Notes under the pieces: generated by a model
Told to the model about the DNA's origin: nothing
Databases searched by the model: none
What the model saw: the letters and a program-made list of their open reading frames with translations, nothing else
Position numbers and translations under genes: made by a program
Source: a virus
Virus record (IMG/VR): IMGVR_UViG_3300023276_001265
Direction: 5' to 3' (one strand)
DNA: 64,000 bases
Shown: piece after piece, positions 63 through 40,057 of the stretch
Numbering within the stretch: the first letter of the stretch is position 1
Layout of the letters: each line of letters opens with the position of its first letter

Positions 63-1190
63 ATGTACAGAGTCGTAGTTATCAAGAATCCAATTGATGG
101 CGCAGTAATTTACGTTGGCCGAGAGAAGCAGTCTGGAAACGGCCGATACGCGCTCAACAGGCTTTTGTCGGATACAAGGCGTGGCGGTAACAGCAAACGT
201 CATTTAGTGGTCAGACGCTTGGTCGAACAAGGCCTTAGTTTGTGCTACCTAGCTATCGCCGAGAATCTGCACGTAAATGCAGCTAAGAAGCTGGTGAACG
301 AGCTACGGGAACAGCACGGAGTTCAGCTCTCCCGTTACGGGTCCACTCGGCCTCGTGTCCACCAGAAAACCGATCCCAACTCGCCATATTTGGACAAAGC
401 AGAGGTCTACTACGTCTACGAACTGATCCGGCCAGACACCGACAATGTGTTCTACGTGGGCAAGGGGTCAGATCGTCAGCAACCACGAGTTGACGCTCAC
501 ATCCGGAAGGCTAAGTCCGGGAAGAAGGGGCACAAGTTCGCGATCATCCGCAAGCTACTTGCGGCCGGTCTCAAGCCCGTTGAGCATAGGATCGCCGAGA
601 ACCTCACCGAGTCCAAAGCGCTCAAGCTCGAAGTCGAGCACATTAGTTCAATAGGATTGAACCTTCTTGCAAACGATGCCTCTGGTGGTCAGACGGCGCC
701 CACTGGCGATGACCACTGGACGCGTAGGCATCCGGAGAAGGTTCTACGAGGTGAGAGCCATCCCATGCGGAGGGATCCTAGTCGAGCCGCACGCGGGCCG
801 CAAAACGGCGCATACACTAAGCCTGAGTGCCGGGTTCGCGGCGCCAAGCACGGGATGTCGAAGCTGGATTACCAGCAGGTCACGAGGATCCGTGCGCGGT
901 ATCAAGAGGGATTGGACTCAGGGAAGCGAGTAACCGGGAAGCGCCTGGCCGCAGATTATGGCGTGACTCCTACCCAGATATCTCGTGTACTTCGTGGTGA
1001 GAGTTGGGACCTGCCGAATCTCATCAAGAAGCACGGCAACGCGAAGCTCACTAAAGAGCAGATCGCGTCTATTCCAGCGAAGCTCGCTGCAGGGTTGAAT
1101 CAGAAGCAGCTGGCAGAAGAACTAGGCGTGAGTCATAGCCTCATCAACTACTACGCCAAGAAGATAGTCGTGGAACTGGTCGTCAACTAG
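63..1190 (+). CDS. Free-standing GIY-YIG family homing endonuclease: tandem GIY-YIG domains, short DNA-binding repeats, two HTH motifs
   Basis: YYVYELIRPDTDNVFYVGKG...R...H...ALKLE...LLAN is a GIY-YIG core, with a degenerate copy at the N-terminus. GxxH/N repeats (GDDHW, GESHP, GPQNG, GAKHGMSKL). HTHs KRLAADYGVTPTQISRVLRG and QKQLAEELGVSHSLI. Confidence 0.8.
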   Translation: MYRVVVIKNPIDGAVIYVGREKQSGNGRYALNRLLSDTRRGGNSKRHLVVRRLVEQGLSLCYLAIAENLHVNAAKKLVNELREQHGVQLSRYGSTRPRVHQKTDPNSPYLDKAEVYYVYELIRPDTDNVFYVGKGSDRQQPRVDAHIRKAKSGKKGHKFAIIRKLLAAGLKPVEHRIAENLTESKALKLEVEHISSIGLNLLANDASGGQTAPTGDDHWTRRHPEKVLRGESHPMRRDPSRAARGPQNGAYTKPECRVRGAKHGMSKLDYQQVTRIRARYQEGLDSGKRVTGKRLAADYGVTPTQISRVLRGESWDLPNLIKKHGNAKLTKEQIASIPAKLAAGLNQKQLAEELGVSHSLINYYAKKIVVELVVN

Positions 1191-22485: not shown

Positions 22486-22818
22486 CTACCAAGCCCAGAC
22501 CCGATACTCTTCGTCTCCAGTAGCGCCCCGCAAGTAGACGATTTTCCGCCTGAAGGTGAAGAAGTTCATCGATTCCTGGGCGAGGAGATCGCCTTCGACG
22601 GTGACACCATCGAATGAGAACTGGATCTCTCTGGCGGAGTGATCATTCGCCACGATCAGTCCCTGACTGATGAAGTTGGTTTTTCCGTCACCCTTGTCGA
22701 TGAACACGAGTTTGCAGTCGGCGAAGTCGGTAGTCAGGTCTGGCCCGATGCCGCCACTGGCGAGGTCCCTCACGTAAAAGCGGTAGCTACGAACGCTCGA
22801 ATCGAATGGTCCAGACAT
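22486..22818 (-). CDS. Small beta-sandwich structural protein, paralogue A
   Basis: About 81% identical (hand count) to the adjacent 22831-23160. AAGGAG SD. Confidence 0.8.
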   Translation of the reverse strand: MSGPFDSSVRSYRFYVRDLASGGIGPDLTTDFADCKLVFIDKGDGKTNFISQGLIVANDHSAREIQFSFDGVTVEGDLLAQESMNFFTFRRKIVYLRGATGDEEYRVWAW

Positions 22819-22830
22819 TGATTACTCTCC

Positions 22831-23160
22831 TTACCAGGCCCAGACCCGGTATTCTTCCCCACCAGACCCGCCGCGCAGGTAGACGACTTTGCGTCTGAAG
22901 GTGAAGAAGTTCATGGATTCCCCTGCCACAAGGTCGCCCTCGATGGTGATGCCGTCAAACGAGAATTGAATCTCAGTTACGGTGTCGTCATTGGCGATGA
23001 TCATGCCCTGACTGACGAAGTTGGTCTTTCCGTCGCCTTTGTCAACGATCACGAGCTTGCAGTCCGCAAAATCAGTGGTCAACGTCGGACCGGTTCCGCC
23101 GCTGACGTTGTCTCGTACGTAGAAGCGGTAACTACGAACGCTCGAATCAAAAGGTCCCAT
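22831..23160 (-). CDS. Small beta-sandwich structural protein, paralogue B
   Basis: Tandem paralogue of 22486-22818. Confidence 0.8.
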   Translation of the reverse strand: MGPFDSSVRSYRFYVRDNVSGGTGPTLTTDFADCKLVIVDKGDGKTNFVSQGMIIANDDTVTEIQFSFDGITIEGDLVAGESMNFFTFRRKVVYLRGGSGGEEYRVWAW

Positions 23161-33718: not shown

Positions 33719-36307
33719 TTAGGTGGAAAGCCTCAGTGAAACTGACTCGTAGAACACCTGCTCGTCGTGAAGAGCACGCAGCTCAGTGATGATGATGTCG
33801 AGACGACCGGGGTGGAGATTGACGTGCTCACCGAGCCACCCACGGAACAGGGCCAACATGTCGTCTTCAACGAGACGCTGATCTTGATTAGGATCATGCT
33901 CGCGCGTATGAGCACCCTGTTGTCTAGAAAACCCTTTTAGGGCTGGGTGCAAAACGTGCCATTCTTCATTATGATTTATCGCGTTTTCTGCCCGCTTAGC
34001 GACACTGCCTGTTTGTTTCCCCAACTTATGGTCGCGCCCAACAATGGAATGCCAAAATGGGTAGTATTCGTGGGACGTGAGCTCTTCACCTTTCAAACCC
34101 TTAAGGGAACTGGTGATGCGATCCCACTGAGGAATCTGCTTTCTAACAGCGTCCGCCATACTCTTTGAAGTCTTAACCGCCCCCCTCTCTATTTTACTCC
34201 TACCAGGCTTTTTAGAACCGGCCTGCCAATCAGCCATTAGCTTGACCGGATCGAGCTGATTGTTGTTGATCGCAATTCCGGGTGGTGGTTGAACCTCCAA
34301 CTTATCAACTGAAATTGGTTGGAGCGCCGGGTGCCCAAGCGTCCGAAGCATGTCACCCCTAGCGGCTACACGCTGGGCATGAGCCTGAGGCTCTTCACCT
34401 ATGTGTCGCTTAATTTCTGCGTGGGTATGCCACGCCTGTGTCGCCCGGTCCCGAAGACCATTGAGGATACCTGTCCACGGCCCACTGTGGGTGTAGTTAG
34501 GGATCACAGTCCTGAAATAATCAGCTCCAGAACCTCTCTTGAACATCCCCGCCTCTAACTGACCAGTCTTTGGGTTCTCTACCGCCGGAGCTCCGAGGGT
34601 GCTGCGCAACCAGTCCCCCATGTTGACGGTGTAGGGCACAACCGCCCCGGTATTTGGATCTTTGTAGGATCGTTCAAAAACCCCAAGCCGCCCTTTGTTT
34701 CCACCTAGTCGTGGATCAGTAAGCAGTCTCTCCGCTCTCGCTAGAGCCCTCCCCTGGTAGGCCTTGATAGCATCTCTCGGCGACATATCTCCGTGTTGGG
34801 CCGCATCGAACTCCGAACCCATTGCGAGTCTACCGAGTGCATCGCCAGCAGCTCGCTGTTTCACAGGGTCGAGAGGTGCGGCCTGCACATCGCGTGCTCT
34901 TTCCAGGGCACCTTCTGCATGTTTATCAATCGTCTGGTCGCGGGCAACCTGTGCCCGCTCCTTGGGCGTCATAGCTTTAAGTTCTTCAGGAGTGTAACTA
35001 GGACGGGCTGCGCCAGTCCCCTGCCGCCTATCGTTAATTGCGGACCGCAGACCCGCTTCGCCCTGCTGTCTTCCTCGTGCCCCTAAGCCTTCGACCCCCG
35101 CTTGACCTTCTATATATCTTCCCATGTTCGTCAATTGCTTAACAAAGGTTGAAGCGTGGTCTTGGTGCGAGTCGTGGTCAACTTCGGGGTTTATTGACCC
35201 TGCCTCCCACGCCGCCTGCGCTTCCGCCCTCTTTGCACGGTGTGCATCCATTGCATCAGAAAAACCTGCCGGATCACCTCTAAAATCCTTTTTAACGGGC
35301 TCTCGCCCTAGCCCGAGGATAGCGTCATCGTGGTGCCTGAACTTCGTGGCGATGGCATTCGCCATAGCGGATCGACCGCCAATCGCATTACCCTTACCGG
35401 CGGACGGAGTCGCCCATGTGGCAAGAATCTCTGAAGCCCTAGCATCACTCTGAGGATTACTCTGCCCATCATTTAGTGCAGCAGAGATGTGTGGGTGAAG
35501 ACGGGTCACCATGTCATTTATATGAGGCCTTACATTGTCCTCGACGTACTTCGCCGCAGCGCGTTTAGCCTCCGTACGCTGGGCGCGGGTCATGCCTGCT
35601 CCATGACCTTTAGCGTGTACCTCCTTAGCCCCAGCAAGCCCTTTATTGATGGCATGTCCGCTTTGGCGGGCGTCATAGCCCTCTTTGTAGCCCGCAGCGT
35701 ATTCTCCACCCTCGGCCGGGTCCTCGTAAGCCTTTCCACGCTTGGATGCCACCCAACCGGCCTGATAGCCCTTACGGTGCTCAGGGGTTCCACTTGCTCC
35801 AGATTTTGATGAAGCGGGCTTAGGCTCCGGCTCCGGCTTTGATTGCGGCGCCTGACCTCCAGATCCCCGCATGAACCTGGCAGCAGCGTCATCATCAGGA
35901 AGGGAGCCAGCATCGTCTGGATTATCATCGCTACCATCATCGATGAACAATGGCTCTGGTTCTGGTTCTGACTTTGGCTCTGACTTTGGCTCTGGCTCCT
36001 CAGAATCTTTGTGAATTTTGCGATAACCTGGATCGTTTTTCATTCTCCAATCGTGGATAGCATCGTCGTCTTCATCTTCATCTCCAGCAGCTCTGTCGCG
36101 CTCTTCTGCGCCGTCACTCCCATCATCAAAGTCATCGTCGTCGTAGTTATCCCAGTCGGGGCCCTCACTAAGGAGCTTCGCCTTGATACCTGGGGATAGG
36201 CTCTCCAGAACATCAAGGGTCTTCTGATACATTCGCTCAAGAACGGCGTTGCAAGAGTAGAACCCGTCAATGCTCTCGGCAATCAATTTGCCTACATCTA
36301 CTGCCAT
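33719..36307 (-). CDS. Large putative head-interior / ejected protein (862 aa)
   Basis: N-terminal LIAE/VLE/LLSE segment, acidic disordered linker, C-terminal RLVE...FYE. AAGGAG SD 8 nt upstream of the ATG. Confidence 0.65.
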   Translation of the reverse strand: MAVDVGKLIAESIDGFYSCNAVLERMYQKTLDVLESLSPGIKAKLLSEGPDWDNYDDDDFDDGSDGAEERDRAAGDEDEDDDAIHDWRMKNDPGYRKIHKDSEEPEPKSEPKSEPEPEPLFIDDGSDDNPDDAGSLPDDDAAARFMRGSGGQAPQSKPEPEPKPASSKSGASGTPEHRKGYQAGWVASKRGKAYEDPAEGGEYAAGYKEGYDARQSGHAINKGLAGAKEVHAKGHGAGMTRAQRTEAKRAAAKYVEDNVRPHINDMVTRLHPHISAALNDGQSNPQSDARASEILATWATPSAGKGNAIGGRSAMANAIATKFRHHDDAILGLGREPVKKDFRGDPAGFSDAMDAHRAKRAEAQAAWEAGSINPEVDHDSHQDHASTFVKQLTNMGRYIEGQAGVEGLGARGRQQGEAGLRSAINDRRQGTGAARPSYTPEELKAMTPKERAQVARDQTIDKHAEGALERARDVQAAPLDPVKQRAAGDALGRLAMGSEFDAAQHGDMSPRDAIKAYQGRALARAERLLTDPRLGGNKGRLGVFERSYKDPNTGAVVPYTVNMGDWLRSTLGAPAVENPKTGQLEAGMFKRGSGADYFRTVIPNYTHSGPWTGILNGLRDRATQAWHTHAEIKRHIGEEPQAHAQRVAARGDMLRTLGHPALQPISVDKLEVQPPPGIAINNNQLDPVKLMADWQAGSKKPGRSKIERGAVKTSKSMADAVRKQIPQWDRITSSLKGLKGEELTSHEYYPFWHSIVGRDHKLGKQTGSVAKRAENAINHNEEWHVLHPALKGFSRQQGAHTREHDPNQDQRLVEDDMLALFRGWLGEHVNLHPGRLDIIITELRALHDEQVFYESVSLRLST

Positions 36308-37158
36308 GCGGGTAGCTCCTTCTTGATCGCTGAGATCAAGCCCGTTCTGTGACTACGATCCCCCCACGCTTGGCGTGCGTCGATCAGCCGTCTGTAGGTC
36401 TCATATTTTCGCGGCAGGTGGGGGACCTGATCGCGAATCTCAAACATCCATTCTAGGATGGTAACCGAATCGTGATGCGGCCAGATCACCTGATTGGTTA
36501 CTACTGATCCCCTGGTGTTGAGTTCAGCGCTGAGGCGAGACTTTACTGATTCCAGAAACTTAGGACTAGCTCCTGCGATAGATAGACCGACCATCGGCTT
36601 ACGCCCAGGTCGTGATCCGTTGCTGTGGTAAACAGATCCATCACCGTCGAATAGTCCGAGCATGAAGTGCTGCATCAGACTTTCAGGAACTAGAGGAAGG
36701 TCAACCATCTTTAGGGACTTAGCCGGAACGACTCCTACCTGGGTGAGCCAGGTGGCCATTCGTGGGCTGCACACATTTAACGTGTAAACGTCGTCTTTGT
36801 AGGGACCACGGACACTACCCCCGACCAGGGGAAGAACGGATCGCAAGTGGTCACGCCCGCTCTCATGGCTCTGACTAACGGAGAATCCGGTGCCGTTTTT
36901 CCTCACGTTCCCATCAGCGGTCAAAAACCCCACAACGTAGGACAACGACGCCGACCACGACTCGACGAATGCTTCGTTAGGAACGAGATTTGAGCCCCCG
37001 GTATGTGGGACTCGGATCTTCCAATAACGATTGTTCCGGAGACGTACGGAGGTCCTAGACCGACCAAGTTGGTCGGCCACAGCTCCAAGATCACGGCTCT
37101 CCTCAAGGAGGAGACGGCCCAGAGAATTATCGTCTGACGTCCAACGCTTACCGGGCAT
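36298..37158 (-). CDS. Free-standing LAGLIDADG homing endonuclease with N-terminal HTH
   Basis: YVVGFLTADG and FMLGLFDGDGS motifs, L...G..P.KS, LPRKY. C-terminus duplicates the end of the upstream gene. Confidence 0.9.
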   Translation of the reverse strand: MPGKRWTSDDNSLGRLLLEESRDLGAVADQLGRSRTSVRLRNNRYWKIRVPHTGGSNLVPNEAFVESWSASLSYVVGFLTADGNVRKNGTGFSVSQSHESGRDHLRSVLPLVGGSVRGPYKDDVYTLNVCSPRMATWLTQVGVVPAKSLKMVDLPLVPESLMQHFMLGLFDGDGSVYHSNGSRPGRKPMVGLSIAGASPKFLESVKSRLSAELNTRGSVVTNQVIWPHHDSVTILEWMFEIRDQVPHLPRKYETYRRLIDARQAWGDRSHRTGLISAIKKELPAWQ

Positions 37159-37160
37159 CG

Positions 37161-38066
37161 CTATTGCCAGTTAGGCAACTCCTTCTTTATGGCAGAAATA
37201 AGGAACTCATTGATCTGATCTGAATTTGCCTGGCAAGTCTCGACCAACTCGCCAATTAGTTTATTGAGATGCGCCGTCTCGTTGACGACCAAGTGGGTGT
37301 GACCGGCAACGCCAAAGTAGAGATATCCCTGGGTGCACGTATCTGCGCTCTGTTGCAGGACGTCCATCTGGAACGCCTTCAGTGATGTCAGCAGGGCCCT
37401 TTGATCGGCGAAGGCCTTCTTCTTACCCTTGCCCGGCTGGGTCGTGACTTCGTTACCTTCGTCATCCTTTGGGGGACGGCGCTTATCTGGAGAGGCTCCA
37501 GTGTTGGCCTGCTCTGATGGTGTCTTGGAGTTCGAGGATCCGCCGCCGACCTTCGCCTTCTCCACTTCGACCATCGTGTCAATCACTTCTTGGCTGTAAC
37601 GCTTCTTGAGATCCTCCATTCGCTCTTCACGAACGAGCATGCGCCGACGCGCAGCCTCAGATGAGATCCCCCACTTGCCAGTGATCTTCTTCTGAAGCTC
37701 TGCGTAACGCGTCCGGTTGATCTTGCCCCGGATGTTGTTCCGCTTAACGCTCCACTCCATGAGCGCTTCTTCGTCCGCATCAGAGAGGTGCTCTTTGACG
37801 ACGCACGGCATGTGCGTCATCTCAAGCGCCAGGCACACCTTCTTACGGTGCTCACCACCGAGGAGACGGAACTTTCCTTTGTCCTCCCCCTCAGTGATAG
37901 GAACAACCTGTCCAGGCTCATCGAACCCGCCGTCCCTGACTGCTTCAAGTAGGGCCGCAAATTCAGGCTCGTCCATCTCGTTCACGTTCCAGTCGCACAA
38001 GACTAGAGCATCAACGGGAATTAGAACGGCACCCTCCCAGGTTGCGAATGACGCGTTTTTAGACAC
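37161..38066 (-). CDS. ParB/Srx N-terminal domain protein
   Basis: WNVNEMD...F..L...V...GF.EP..V...LLGGEHR...L...MPCVV...N.IRG. Confidence 0.85.
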   Translation of the reverse strand: MSKNASFATWEGAVLIPVDALVLCDWNVNEMDEPEFAALLEAVRDGGFDEPGQVVPITEGEDKGKFRLLGGEHRKKVCLALEMTHMPCVVKEHLSDADEEALMEWSVKRNNIRGKINRTRYAELQKKITGKWGISSEAARRRMLVREERMEDLKKRYSQEVIDTMVEVEKAKVGGGSSNSKTPSEQANTGASPDKRRPPKDDEGNEVTTQPGKGKKKAFADQRALLTSLKAFQMDVLQQSADTCTQGYLYFGVAGHTHLVVNETAHLNKLIGELVETCQANSDQINEFLISAIKKELPNWQ

Positions 38067-38071
38067 AGGAA

Positions 38072-40057
38072 TTATCTCCGTGGCGACCCAGTGTCGCGAC
38101 GGCTTTGCCGCGCTGCAGCGTCTTGGGCGATATTGCGGCTCGGCTTGTCCTTCTTGCCGCTCTCAGCAGCCTTGTGGAGCCCAGTAATCTTGTCCTTGTC
38201 GTCGTGCTCAGGCCCGAACCCGGTCTTGTATTCACTACGACCCTTCTTAGTACCGCCTACGCCGTCATGCGAACCCTTGCACAGACGGTAGAACTCTTTC
38301 GGGTCCCGAGCCTGCAGCGCTTGACCCGCTTGGCCGAGGTTGCCGTCCTTATCCTTCTGGCAGGCAGGGCGCTCATCGTGGAGATCACCAGTTGGGCGAA
38401 CATTGATCTGGTGTCCAGACGAGTCTGCGAATCCGGTGCCCTTTACCTTGTCAATGACGCGCTGACTGGTCTCCTGGTCCTTGTGGTAGGACTTGCCCAG
38501 TGAAGCCATAGCTGATGCGTAACCGCCCTCCTTGGAGACGCGATACCACTTTTGGCGTGGATCCCTATCAGTGTCGCCGACAAAGGCGAACTGATCATCA
38601 CCGGCCGACCCGCGAGATCCGGCCTTGCTCTTGTCGGTGTGAAGCATCGCGTCATCGTCTGAGTTGCCGAACGTCGTCGCGTTGGCAAACTTCTTGTTGT
38701 TCTTCTTCCCGGAAGAGTGGACGTTTTCACCTGTGTCGGGGTCCTTGTGGTGGCCCTTCCACTTCGGGTGCTCGTCCTTGCTGTAGCCCTTCGCATCGTC
38801 ATGCTCGCGATCGCGCGAGGACGGGTTTGTGAACTGTGCCCGACGGAGCTTGGCAGCCTTTGCCCGTGTTGATCGTTCTGCGTAGTTAGGGTCCGAAGGA
38901 TCTGTAACCCCTTGGGCCATTCCGTGCTTGTCCGGTCCTACTTTCTTGCCGGTATCCGGATCAATACGACGAGCTGAGTCGCGGTTTCCACGGCCACGGC
39001 CACGGCGCTTACGCTCGTCACTCAGCGATTGGAAGTCGGCGTTCGCCGATGCTCGATAGCGGGCGTGCTGCTCAGCGTCGTGAGTATCTTCTGGGTGATG
39101 GGCCAGAGACCTACGACGATTAGGCGCCACGAAGGGAGCGGCCTTGGTTGCCTTTCGACCCTTCTCAACGTGTTGCGTCAGGTCATTGAGCGTGTTCTGA
39201 AGCGCAGCGACCTTGTCGTGGATGCTGTCACCGGCCATGGTCTTTTCTGGCATGGCCCCGCTGCCGACCTTGCCTTCTCCACGGCGCTTGGCCATACGGT
39301 TCAGTCCGGCCTTACGACCTTGTCGATTGCCAGCTGGTGTTTTGTAGACGTCTGCTGGGTCTTCGATCCCCGTTACCTTCTTGGCGCGGGACTTCCGAAC
39401 ACCTTTCAGCTTTCCTTTGATGCGGTCCGCAACTGCATCGTCGTCAGGAATCGGAGAAGGCTCAGGCCGGTCAGGACCAGGAGTAGGACGACCTAGCCAA
39501 GCTGGCCTCTTCGACTTTTTCTTGGAACCTGGATCGTCATCTAGGGCCTGGGCCCCGGCGCCTGGGGCAGCCGGAGGTGGAGTTCCACCACCACCATCAC
39601 CACCACCACCACGGGGCGGCTTGTCCTTCTTGTCCTTCTTCGCCAGGGCCTTCATCTCATCTGGAGACATCCCGATCTTCTTACGGTCATAAGCGATCTT
39701 CGGCTTGAACTTGGACGCTTCCGGCTCCGGCTCACCGGCCGCTGCACGCGCCGCTTTTGCCGCCGCACGCTTTCTGGCCTGCTTAGCCTTGTTCTTCTCG
39801 TTCGCCCGGTTCTTAGCCACCTTACGGGCGGCTTTGCCTTGAGCAAACTCTTCAGGAGATTGCTTCGGGATAGCCGCCTCCGCCAAGAAGCGAAGCGCGA
39901 AGCGCGAGTGTGTCCGACTTAGTCCTGCTGGGACTGGGGACTGGTGAGCACGTTCAACCAAGCGCATTGCGCCTGATCTACCGAGATCAGTATTGATGCT
40001 CTCAAGGATGTTGAGCACGCGAGCCGCGTGAAATTCCATCTTTGCTGTGTTGGCCAT
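38072..40057 (-). CDS. Highly basic disordered protein (661 aa), putative head-interior DNA-binding protein
   Basis: N-terminal ILE/LVE/FLAE segment followed by K/R/G/D-rich low complexity. Confidence 0.6.
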   Translation of the reverse strand: MANTAKMEFHAARVLNILESINTDLGRSGAMRLVERAHQSPVPAGLSRTHSRFALRFLAEAAIPKQSPEEFAQGKAARKVAKNRANEKNKAKQARKRAAAKAARAAAGEPEPEASKFKPKIAYDRKKIGMSPDEMKALAKKDKKDKPPRGGGGDGGGGTPPPAAPGAGAQALDDDPGSKKKSKRPAWLGRPTPGPDRPEPSPIPDDDAVADRIKGKLKGVRKSRAKKVTGIEDPADVYKTPAGNRQGRKAGLNRMAKRRGEGKVGSGAMPEKTMAGDSIHDKVAALQNTLNDLTQHVEKGRKATKAAPFVAPNRRRSLAHHPEDTHDAEQHARYRASANADFQSLSDERKRRGRGRGNRDSARRIDPDTGKKVGPDKHGMAQGVTDPSDPNYAERSTRAKAAKLRRAQFTNPSSRDREHDDAKGYSKDEHPKWKGHHKDPDTGENVHSSGKKNNKKFANATTFGNSDDDAMLHTDKSKAGSRGSAGDDQFAFVGDTDRDPRQKWYRVSKEGGYASAMASLGKSYHKDQETSQRVIDKVKGTGFADSSGHQINVRPTGDLHDERPACQKDKDGNLGQAGQALQARDPKEFYRLCKGSHDGVGGTKKGRSEYKTGFGPEHDDKDKITGLHKAAESGKKDKPSRNIAQDAAARQSRRDTGSPRR

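Follow-up and report, generated by a model that had tools for sequence, protein, structure and literature searches.

The window, a stretch of 64,000 nucleotides of viral DNA from a giant phage (IMG/VR record IMGVR_UViG_3300023276_001265), contains a ParB-like gene whose 3' end is duplicated; the second copy forms, in frame, the C-terminus of a LAGLIDADG endonuclease encoded directly downstream. A free-standing LAGLIDADG element of the terminus-replacing type, with neither intron nor intein and with predicted cleavage activity, very probably explains this locus. Its features are as follows:

37161..38066, minus strand: ParB-like gene, 301 aa, intact, ending ...NEFLISAIKKELPNWQ before the stop
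37161..37202, minus strand: upstream (replacement) parB tail, 13 codons plus TAG, encoding LISAIKKELPNWQ and the stop, putatively part of the mobile element
36298..37158, minus strand: LAGLIDADG endonuclease gene, 286 aa, single-chain, ending ...RTGLISAIKKELPAWQ before the stop
36904..36939, minus strand: LAGLIDADG motif 1, YVVGFLTADGNV, residues 74-85, acidic residue D82
36631..36666, minus strand: LAGLIDADG motif 2, FMLGLFDGDGSV, residues 165-176, acidic residues D171/D173
36298..36339, minus strand: downstream (displaced native) parB tail, equal to the final 13 codons and stop of the endonuclease, in frame
36316..36321, minus strand: AAGGAG Shine-Dalgarno (SD) sequence of the 862-aa gene, within the displaced tail, 8 nt 5' of the ATG
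33719..36307, minus strand: 862-aa gene, with its ATG (36307-36305) within the last codons of the endonuclease, an overlap of 10 nt
36340..37202, minus strand: putative insert relative to empty alleles, 863 bp, comprising the replacement tail, the spacer CG, and, as far as the fusion point, the coding sequence specific to the endonuclease

The extent of the insert was derived from a comparison of occupied with empty junctions; homology between the replacement tail and the native sequence leaves the left boundary of the 863 bp ambiguous. The ParB-like ORF matched the profile phrog_26387 (ParB-like, E 3e-15), and PF02195 was found in homologues of the protein, which consists of an N-terminal ParB/Srx-type domain (modelled pLDDT 83-93) and a conserved C-terminal tail. 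The host of the phage is uncultured.

The parB and endonuclease ORFs share the C-terminus LISAIKKELP[N/A]WQ, followed in each by a stop. A preliminary description of this DNA had reported 12/13 identical residues but only 29/42 identical nucleotides, and recomputation returned the same figures, with synonymous changes in eight codons (L, I, S, A, I, L, P, Q). As had also been described, the copy at the endonuclease end is richer in G/C-ending codons (10/13, GC3 0.769) than the copy that now ends parB (7/13, GC3 0.538), a true difference in a tiny sample; GC3 is 0.667 in the parB core and 0.571 in the endonuclease core. The AAGGAG and the overlapping ATG were both seen inside the endonuclease-end copy, where they had been placed. 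The match between the tails is not due to chance, since the peptide is found family-wide in ParB, recurs in two other diverged endonuclease copies, and is encoded in 1100 bp, covering both tail copies, that are identical in four independent assemblies. This identity also means that the duplication is not an artefact.

Homologues of the ParB-like protein show that members of the ParB family conserve this peptide at their C-terminus. Nearly all of 91 ParB homologues end in FLISAI.KELP.WQ, with A292, K295, E296, L297, P298, and W300 invariant. Endonuclease homologues at other loci (≤38% identity) lack the tail peptide, which answers the possibility, raised in the preliminary description, that endonucleases at unrelated loci share it. 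One such homologue (P0104), which adjoins a gp19 tail-tube gene, is without the peptide, and more distant homologues stop at approximately the fusion point.

The endonuclease gene itself, on the strength of its sequence and structural model, is an intact single-chain, two-domain LAGLIDADG homing endonuclease with predicted cleavage activity. It matched PF14528 (LAGLIDADG_3; 33.4 bits, cut-off 22.5) and phrog_4645 ("endonuclease", E 2.6e-23). Across 38 homologues, G77 and G83 of motif 1 and G168, G172, and G174 of motif 2 are invariant, and D82, D171, and D173 are nearly so. The AlphaFold model (mean pLDDT 93.4) shows a domain of three helices at the N-terminus, then two LAGLIDADG domains and, at the C-terminus, a long helix running into the ParB-derived tail; the order of secondary structures fits two pseudo-symmetric alpha-beta-beta-alpha-beta-beta-alpha domains. 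A Foldseek search matched it, with probability 1.00, to I-Tsp061I (E 2.3e-9), PI-PfuI, I-OnuI, I-SceI, I-AniI, and I-DmoI. An intron- or intein-encoded endonuclease was considered and rejected: an Rfam search of 35500-38500 (E ≤ 0.1) gave no intron RNA match, a Pfam search gave no Hint/intein domain, and each gene keeps a signal of its own, a stop for parB and an ATG for the endonuclease. These results agree with the splicing-free invasion of a coding sequence that had been proposed from the sequence.

Occupied alleles were found in three diverged forms, all fused at the same point: the window, L025, and L002. The L025 allele is 61% identical and intact. The L002 allele (68% identical) has decayed through an in-frame deletion of 128 residues (residues 73-200) that removed both catalytic motifs. 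The full layout of parB, endonuclease, and displaced tail is also present in L002, while L025 shows its downstream half. Upon inspection of the downstream junction, we noted that L002 retains the F codon, so the duplicated unit is probably 14 codons. The insertion had been placed ~13 codons before the parB stop; this position stands, and a unit of exactly 13 codons is the less likely one.

Related phage contigs without the endonuclease provided 14 distinct empty alleles, in each of which the end of parB overlaps the ATG or GTG of a homologue of the 862-aa gene. The same overlapped start was found in all empty and occupied alleles, and the displaced tail of the window is joined to the 862-aa gene exactly as in 14/14 empty alleles. 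Empty alleles with a G/C-rich type of tail joined directly to this gene had been predicted, and parB does end in this way in them. In the closest one (L003, ParB 85% identical) the junction reads ...ATC TCG GCG ATC AAG AAG GAG CTA CCA TCA TGG CAG TAG ATG TAG GG, and its tail shares 37/42 nt with the downstream copy of the window and 30/42 with the upstream copy. The downstream copy also agreed with L014 at 37/42 nt and with L005 and L007 at 36/42. A reconstructed empty junction of the window matched L003 at background level (83-88%).

Collectively, these comparisons support the downstream copy as the native one and the upstream copy as its replacement. When the two copies of the window were each compared with the 14 empty alleles, the downstream one was the better match 11 times, with one tie and two reversals; for L002 it was the better match all 14 times. 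The advantage is modest per comparison. The AAGGAG is present in 13/14 empty alleles and in all three downstream copies, and is lost from the upstream copy of L002 (AAA GAA). The preliminary description had thus correctly named the endonuclease-end copy as the displaced native end. Its expectation that empty alleles would not carry the A/T-rich version was borne out for most of them; L021 and L019 are marginally closer (by 1-2 nt) to the A/T-richer upstream copy.

These two alleles, together with the AAGGAG still found in the upstream copy of the window, would fit a reversed polarity, in which the upstream tail is native and the element comprises the endonuclease and a downstream tail brought in with it, from which the 862-aa gene would take a new SD and start. 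We consider this very unlikely, given the 11/14 and 14/14 comparisons and the 37 versus 30 matches to the closest relative. It also sits poorly with the divergence between the window and L002 (42 nt, two alleles): the downstream tails diverge like the host flanks (74-77% identical; flanking parB 77%), and the upstream tails (62%) like the endonuclease (62-66%).

With the native copy so assigned, the terminus-replacing element can be outlined. In the ancestral empty allele, parB would have ended in ...NEF-LISAIKKELPxWQ and a stop, with the same codons holding the SD and overlapping start of the next gene. The element sits ~13-14 codons before the parB stop and is made up of a substitute tail that brings its stop, two spacer nucleotides, and the endonuclease ORF. 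Thanks to this tail, ParB keeps its full length, and the ORF, having no stop of its own, reads in frame into the displaced native tail. Because of this read-through, the native SD/ATG context and the stop that ribosomes meet just past the ATG are unchanged for the downstream gene, and its translational coupling would presumably be kept. The endonuclease ORF starts 2 nt past the parB stop (spacer CG) and no SD was evident for it; from this arrangement, it is probably translated by termination-reinitiation. By analogy with the WHO and mORF systems described below, the enzyme would act on a relative infecting the same cell and cut the conserved sequence that surrounds codons F288|L289 of its empty allele; the occupied allele would be immune. 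Repair would then be templated on the occupied genome, where parB would provide the left homology and the displaced tail, together with the downstream gene, the right one. It would copy the element in, swapping the tail of the recipient for that of the donor.

The upstream copy shows a modest excess of synonymous divergence from L003 (8/11 codons, where the background is 42%; p = 0.039); for most of the other empty alleles the excess did not reach significance. All of its changes are at wobble positions that vary among natural empty alleles too; by this measure the upstream copy may be a natural variant of the donor lineage, or may have diverged after insertion, rather than having been specially recoded into the cleavage-resistant end that the preliminary description had proposed. 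Two other nuclease-associated end duplications in the same genome are identical at 25/27 nt, so heavy recoding is not a general requirement.

Such near-identity, along with the ordinary wobble changes and the weak divergence excess, lends weight to a rival account of the same insertion. According to this account, the duplication was forced by the overlap of parB with the next gene, since an insertion between the two must double their common SD, start, and stop region, and the upstream copy, at first identical, diverged later instead of arriving as an imported nuclease-resistant tail; the divergence would stem from release of the SD/overlap constraints or from protection against deletion by repeat recombination. 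The SD and start lie inside the tail in all empty alleles, and the loss of AAGGAG from the L002 upstream copy is in keeping with a released constraint. Nevertheless, the 13-14 duplicated codons exceed the SD-to-stop segment that needs duplicating (~24 nt), and the upstream changes in the window extend to the 5' LISAI codons, which are free of overlap constraint. Moreover, between the window and L002 the upstream tails have diverged to the same degree as the endonucleases, and in the WHO and mORF systems, which have been studied by experiment, the upstream end comes in with the element. On balance, we regard forced duplication with later divergence as unlikely.

The ParB-derived tail might instead be a functional gain for the endonuclease, for example as a docking helix to a partner or compartment of ParB, in a gene nearing domestication. 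The tail does lengthen the modelled C-terminal helix (249-281), and the peptide is retained in three diverged endonuclease copies. However, every downstream tail was inherited from the parB of its own host, the L002 copy has decayed, pLDDT drops to 73-80 in the tail, and the model of the ParB C-terminal domain is of too poor a quality for judging a docking role. We find this explanation scarcely credible: the tail is constrained at the DNA level (SD, start, and first codons of the next gene), so conservation of the peptide needs no function at the protein level.

As to the history of the terminus-replacing element, presence, absence, and decay at one codon form, in the alleles compared, a pattern typical of homing endonucleases. 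The downstream flank of every occupied allele is most similar to an empty allele and not to another occupied one, and no co-conversion tract was visible in parB upstream of the tail. A tree of the flanks is compatible with both horizontal spread and ancient insertion plus repeated loss, which it cannot separate. A GIY-YIG gene at a tube-like gene of the same genome counts, with the LAGLIDADG locus, as a terminus-duplicating insertion under a broader reading that we offer tentatively, as possible but somewhat doubtful: such insertion may serve nuclease families of unrelated origin generally as a way, free of splicing, into the packed, overlapping genes of giant phages. If so, in-frame capture of the displaced end would be selected, leaving the ribosome-binding site, start, and translational coupling of the next gene untouched.

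Our literature search found no report of a terminus-replacing design in phages; it is known from fungi. WHO elements of Torulaspora and Lachancea yeasts home into FBA1, and both allele-specific cleavage (WHO6) and 3'-end replacement have been demonstrated (Coughlan et al. 2020, eLife; PMC7282813). Like the phage locus, they are splicing-free, their unit is an endonuclease gene plus an upstream replacement 3' end of the target, and the old 3' end of the recipient is moved downstream as the right-hand homology. The 3' end of the WHO target evolves differently from the remainder of the gene (PMC7282813). In WHO proteins, which belong to the eukaryotic nucleus, an intein-like nuclease is joined to zinc fingers; the replacement covers ~400 bp, and what is displaced survives as a non-coding relic (PMC7282813). 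By contrast, the phage locus has a plain two-domain LAGLIDADG enzyme of predicted cleavage activity and 13-14 replaced codons, and its displaced end is still translated, as the nuclease C-terminus, and holds the SD and start of the next gene.

The preliminary description had likened the locus to a strategy of fungal mitochondria, and its architecture indeed matches that of mORF gene hybrids, besides the yeast elements. These hybrids are found in atp6 of Allomyces macrogynus, in atp6, atp9, cox2, and nad3 of Glomus sp., in atp9 of Rhizopus, and in cox2 of Mortierella (PMC3630166 and its reference 48). They share with the phage locus the order of inserted C-terminus, endonuclease ORF, and native C*-terminus, with the protein sequence of the end preserved. 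Similarity to uninvaded relatives is 91-98% for the native and 64-81% for the inserted copy in mORF hybrids (PMC3630166), and 88% versus 71% at the phage locus. Some mORF elements are in phase with a neighbouring coding sequence, namely the upstream host gene (PMC3630166), whereas the phage ORF stands apart from parB (stop plus 2 nt) and continues in frame into the displaced end on its downstream side. The mORF hybrids belong to organelle genomes; the role of the displaced end in expression of the next gene is peculiar to the phage operon, with its compact and overlapping genes.

Among phages, the Seg and Mob genes of T4-like phages are likewise free-standing and phage-borne. They adjoin conserved genes, flanking markers are co-converted, expression is weak or coupled, and the occupied genome is protected by differences in target sequence. 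Unlike the endonuclease described here, they are intergenic, target a neighbouring gene that is left undisturbed, and encode GIY-YIG or HNH rather than LAGLIDADG enzymes; we know of no gene-end duplication or in-frame fusion to a displaced end described for them. Their "intronless homing" was reportedly described by Belle et al. in 2002 and reviewed by Edgell et al. in 2010.

Further phage parallels are MobA with the bypass cassette of gene 60 and, in phage Aeh1, mobE in the split nrdA. Here too a phage coding sequence has been entered by an endonuclease gene that relies on neither intron nor intein, and the function of the host protein is retained. In these insertions, either the host gene is split into two polypeptides or ribosomal bypass is needed; they were reportedly described by Bonocora et al. 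in 2011 and Friedrich et al. in 2007. Unlike gene 60 and nrdA, parB remains undivided, thanks to the duplicate end.

We rechecked the open reading frames around the ParB-like gene, together with their tails, and all coordinates and identity counts reported for the two gene ends in the preliminary description were correct. The genes concerned are:

38066-37161, minus strand: ParB-like gene, 301 aa (match to phrog_26387, E 3e-15; homologues with PF02195)
37158-36298, minus strand: LAGLIDADG endonuclease gene, 286 aa (LAGLIDADG_3 domain; phrog_4645)
36307-33719, minus strand: 862-aa gene, with its ATG within the final endonuclease codons and AAGGAG 8 nt before it

In the window, the endonuclease gene starts 2 nt past the parB TAG. 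ParB ends in LISAIKKELPNWQ and the endonuclease in LISAIKKELPAWQ, each followed by a stop codon. Between these two ends (37161-37202, the upstream tail; 36298-36339, the downstream tail), 12/13 residues and 29/42 nucleotides are the same, and eight codons differ synonymously. Four independent assemblies agree at every position over 1100 bp of the locus, which rules out an assembly artefact, and the endonuclease protein was found on 13 contigs. The samples in which this phage occurs are ERZ27250271, SRR7615657, ERZ23491324 and ERZ27237643. A terminator scan returned a 5-bp hairpin (TTGCC/GGCAA) in the upstream tail; it is not conserved in a second occupied allele (L002) or in alleles lacking the endonuclease, and was dismissed as a consequence of the codons for LP.WQ. 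The 862-aa gene and a 661-aa neighbour (33719-36307 and 38072-40057, minus strand) are rich in charged, low-complexity stretches, and neither had a match in Pfam or PHROG. Homologues of the 862-aa gene share a conserved N-terminus (MAVD.G.LIAE) and diverge very fast beyond it.

Next, we considered where the shared peptide came from. The motif ...NEFLISAI(K/T)KELPxWQ forms the C-terminal end of nearly all of 91 metagenomic ParB homologues, and in the closest 36, 6 of the last 10 positions do not vary. When the endonuclease was used for an exhaustive profile search, 5263 relatives were retrieved; of these, the best 150 were inspected for the peptide. Only the two closest, P0093 (68% identity) and P0106 (61%), carry it. 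The other relatives among these 150, all at ≤38% identity, end a few residues past a conserved ...RKY...AR..W helix, approximately at the position of the fusion. The preliminary description had named sharing of the peptide by homologous endonucleases at unrelated loci as a result that would refute its reading; the absence of the peptide from the ≤38%-identical relatives among the best 150 speaks against this, and rules out that it is intrinsic to the endonuclease family. Since the peptide is common to ParB homologues and missing from these endonucleases, it is, on sequence comparison, a ParB peptide that was appended to the endonuclease. In another metagenomic phage, a 38%-identical relative, P0104 (L026 1-1350), directly precedes a Phage_T4_gp19 tail-tube gene, so the endonuclease family is also found at conserved phage genes other than parB.

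The endonuclease is intact: both LAGLIDADG motifs are conserved and retain their acidic residues. Its AlphaFold model (pLDDT 93.4) consists of an N-terminal three-helix domain followed by two alpha-beta-beta-alpha-beta-beta-alpha domains, and Foldseek matches were LAGLIDADG enzymes throughout. The modelled terminal helix (residues 249-281) runs on into the ParB-derived tail, where pLDDT is 73-80. In the ParB model, pLDDT was ~50-56 in the C-terminal domain, too low to tell a packing helix from a docking peptide. No intron RNA was detected at the locus and Pfam found no intein domain, and both an intron and an intein were ruled out.

Related contigs from IMG/VR, JGI, ENA and Logan provided 14 distinct empty alleles, in which a homologue of the 862-aa gene comes directly after parB. 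In all 14, this homologue has its ATG or GTG inside the parB tail, at the codons ...xx[A/G] TGG..., and in 13 of them AAGGAG stands 8 nt before that start. The closest relative, L003 (ParB 85% identical), has the parB end that had been predicted for an uninvaded gene joined to the 862-aa gene: its tail matches the window's downstream copy at 37/42 nt, compared to 30/42 nt for the upstream copy. The downstream copy was nearer in 11/14 empty alleles, with one tie and two alleles (L021 and L019) reversed by 1-2 nt. When parB through F288 was joined in silico to the downstream copy, the resulting virtual empty allele was 83-88% identical to L003 over the junction, equal to the local background. 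No cultured phage relative of the locus was found by blastn against 50,697 phage records, which returned only a spurious 48-nt match. The genome-contig collection contained no relative of ParB or the endonuclease; the viral-contig collection contained no additional endonuclease copy and, on the L001/L023 contig, a single ParB relative.

Two further occupied alleles were found. L002 (Logan) has the same layout as the window, with a 3-nt spacer between the parB tail and a decayed endonuclease:

L002 113-586: endonuclease remnant, with the N-terminal three-helix domain and the C-terminal helix kept in frame

The remnant (157 aa) ends in FLIHAIKKELPKWQ and its stop, which overlap the downstream gene's GTG. 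Residues 73-200 were removed by a clean in-frame deletion and both LAGLIDADG motifs are gone. Such decay would maintain translation into the displaced tail, although an in-frame deletion could also have arisen by chance (1 in 3). The upstream parB tail of L002 is A/T-richer (...ATT AGT GCT ATT CGC AAA GAA...) and has lost the SD, and the downstream tail is nearer than the upstream tail to 14/14 empty alleles. The second allele, L025 (JGI), encodes an intact endonuclease (61% identical) that ends in VLISAIKKELPSWQ and its stop over the downstream GTG; this contig begins within the endonuclease and hence shows the downstream junction only. Between the window and L002, identity was 77% in adjacent parB, 74% in the downstream tails, 62% in the upstream tails, and 62-66% in the endonuclease. 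These values, from tails of only 42 nt, are consistent with an upstream tail that belongs to the mobile unit. As the junction codon directly before the downstream tail, L002 has TTC (F), L025 has GTC and the window has GGC, and the original duplication probably spanned 14 codons. A maximum-likelihood tree of the first 150 residues of the downstream gene was completely unresolved, and we therefore used best-match rankings alone, which are weaker evidence for a patchy distribution. In these rankings, the best match of every occupied allele's downstream flank was an empty allele, not another occupied one.

The upstream tail may be a recoded, cleavage-resistant copy, as the preliminary description proposed. 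Among identical-residue codons, 8/11 in the upstream tail differ from L003 (p = 0.039), compared to 3/11 in the downstream tail and 42% in the parB core; the upstream excess is not significant against most other empty alleles. All upstream-tail changes are wobble changes, of kinds that vary among natural empty alleles. GC3 was 0.54 in the upstream copy and 0.77 in the downstream copy, too weak a sign of foreign origin with 13 codons, and was set aside. No co-conversion tract upstream of the tail emerged when the final 285 nt of parB were compared with L021 and L003 in sliding segments.

Other end duplications were found in the genome contig that contains the window (C1):

Window 63-1190, plus strand: GIY-YIG (PF22945) and HTH gene, 375 aa, ending ...KKIVVELVVN and stop
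C1:55572-55598, shortly before the window begins: end of a tube-like gene (ORF of 162 aa, stop-to-stop), ...EEIVVELVVN and stop
C1:127620-127646 (window-scale 72009-72035, past the window end): end of a capsid-like ORF (483 aa, stop-to-stop), ...SMVNITNLV and stop
C1:129704-129730 (window-scale 74093-74119): orphan repeat of the capsid-like ORF end, closing a 17-codon frame

The tube-like and GIY-YIG/HTH genes share IVVELVVN and the stop with 25/27 nt identical; this pair is the same end-duplication design as at parB, with an unrelated nuclease family. The MVNITNLV copies of the capsid-like end, 2084 bp apart, are likewise identical at 25/27 nt. What these cases have in common is thus the duplication and not heavy divergence. 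The parB duplication may be older, or the upstream tail may have come from a diverged donor. Divergence between the tails would also guard the element against deletion by recombination between the repeats. Separately, two adjoining ORFs of ~110 aa at window 22486-22831 (minus strand) both end in ...EEYRVWAW and stop (9/12 identical) and resemble tandem paralogues more than a nuclease-associated duplication.

The parB arrangement is most likely the layout of a terminus-replacing homing element. By analogy with the fungal WHO and mORF elements, the homing cycle would run between co-infecting phages, with a target spanning the highly conserved ...AAT GAG TTC/CTC ATC... region of empty parB alleles (the slash separates the F288 and L289 codons). 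The displaced end holds the SD and start of the next gene, and the endonuclease ORF enters it in frame and stops at parB's original stop, so that ribosome traffic over the next start would be as in the empty allele. No SD is recognisable before the endonuclease gene, which begins 2-3 nt past the parB stop; this suggests low-level translation coupled to parB.

Collectively, the case for a terminus-replacing element at parB is well supported. Natural empty, occupied and decayed alleles show how a nuclease gene can enter the coding sequence of a conserved, essential-looking phage gene with no intron, no intein, and both neighbours unbroken. For annotation, the final 13 endonuclease residues and the final 13 parB codons have histories unlike the rest of their genes. 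Such elements would exchange gene ends among co-infecting phages, thereby making recombination boundaries. The enzyme and its predicted ~20-40 bp target around F288/L289 of empty parB alleles are a candidate meganuclease pair, which would have a new LAGLIDADG specificity. The main value of the locus lies in this directly testable pair and in a clean natural series of empty, intact and decayed alleles.

The principle is established, with experimental support, in fungi. The yeast WHO nuclease cuts a sensitive allele; during repair templated by the occupied chromosome, the FBA1 3' end is exchanged for the donor's resistant version, while the old end is pushed downstream and serves as right-hand homology (PMC7282813). 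In the fungal mitochondrial precedent, mORFs make like replacements in atp6, atp9, cox2 and nad3, and in the hybrids the native C*-terminus is nearer to those of uninvaded relatives than the inserted one is (PMC3630166). The literature that we searched, with incomplete coverage that leaves absence unproven, yielded fungal and organelle papers only and no phage precedent for the design. To our knowledge, the T4 Seg/Mob paradigm is intergenic insertion without a duplicated gene end, whereas a duplicated end is present at parB. Unlike a dead relic, the displaced parB end still carries the SD and start of the next gene and is translated in frame. The advance is therefore the extension of the principle to phages, together with the dual use of the displaced end.
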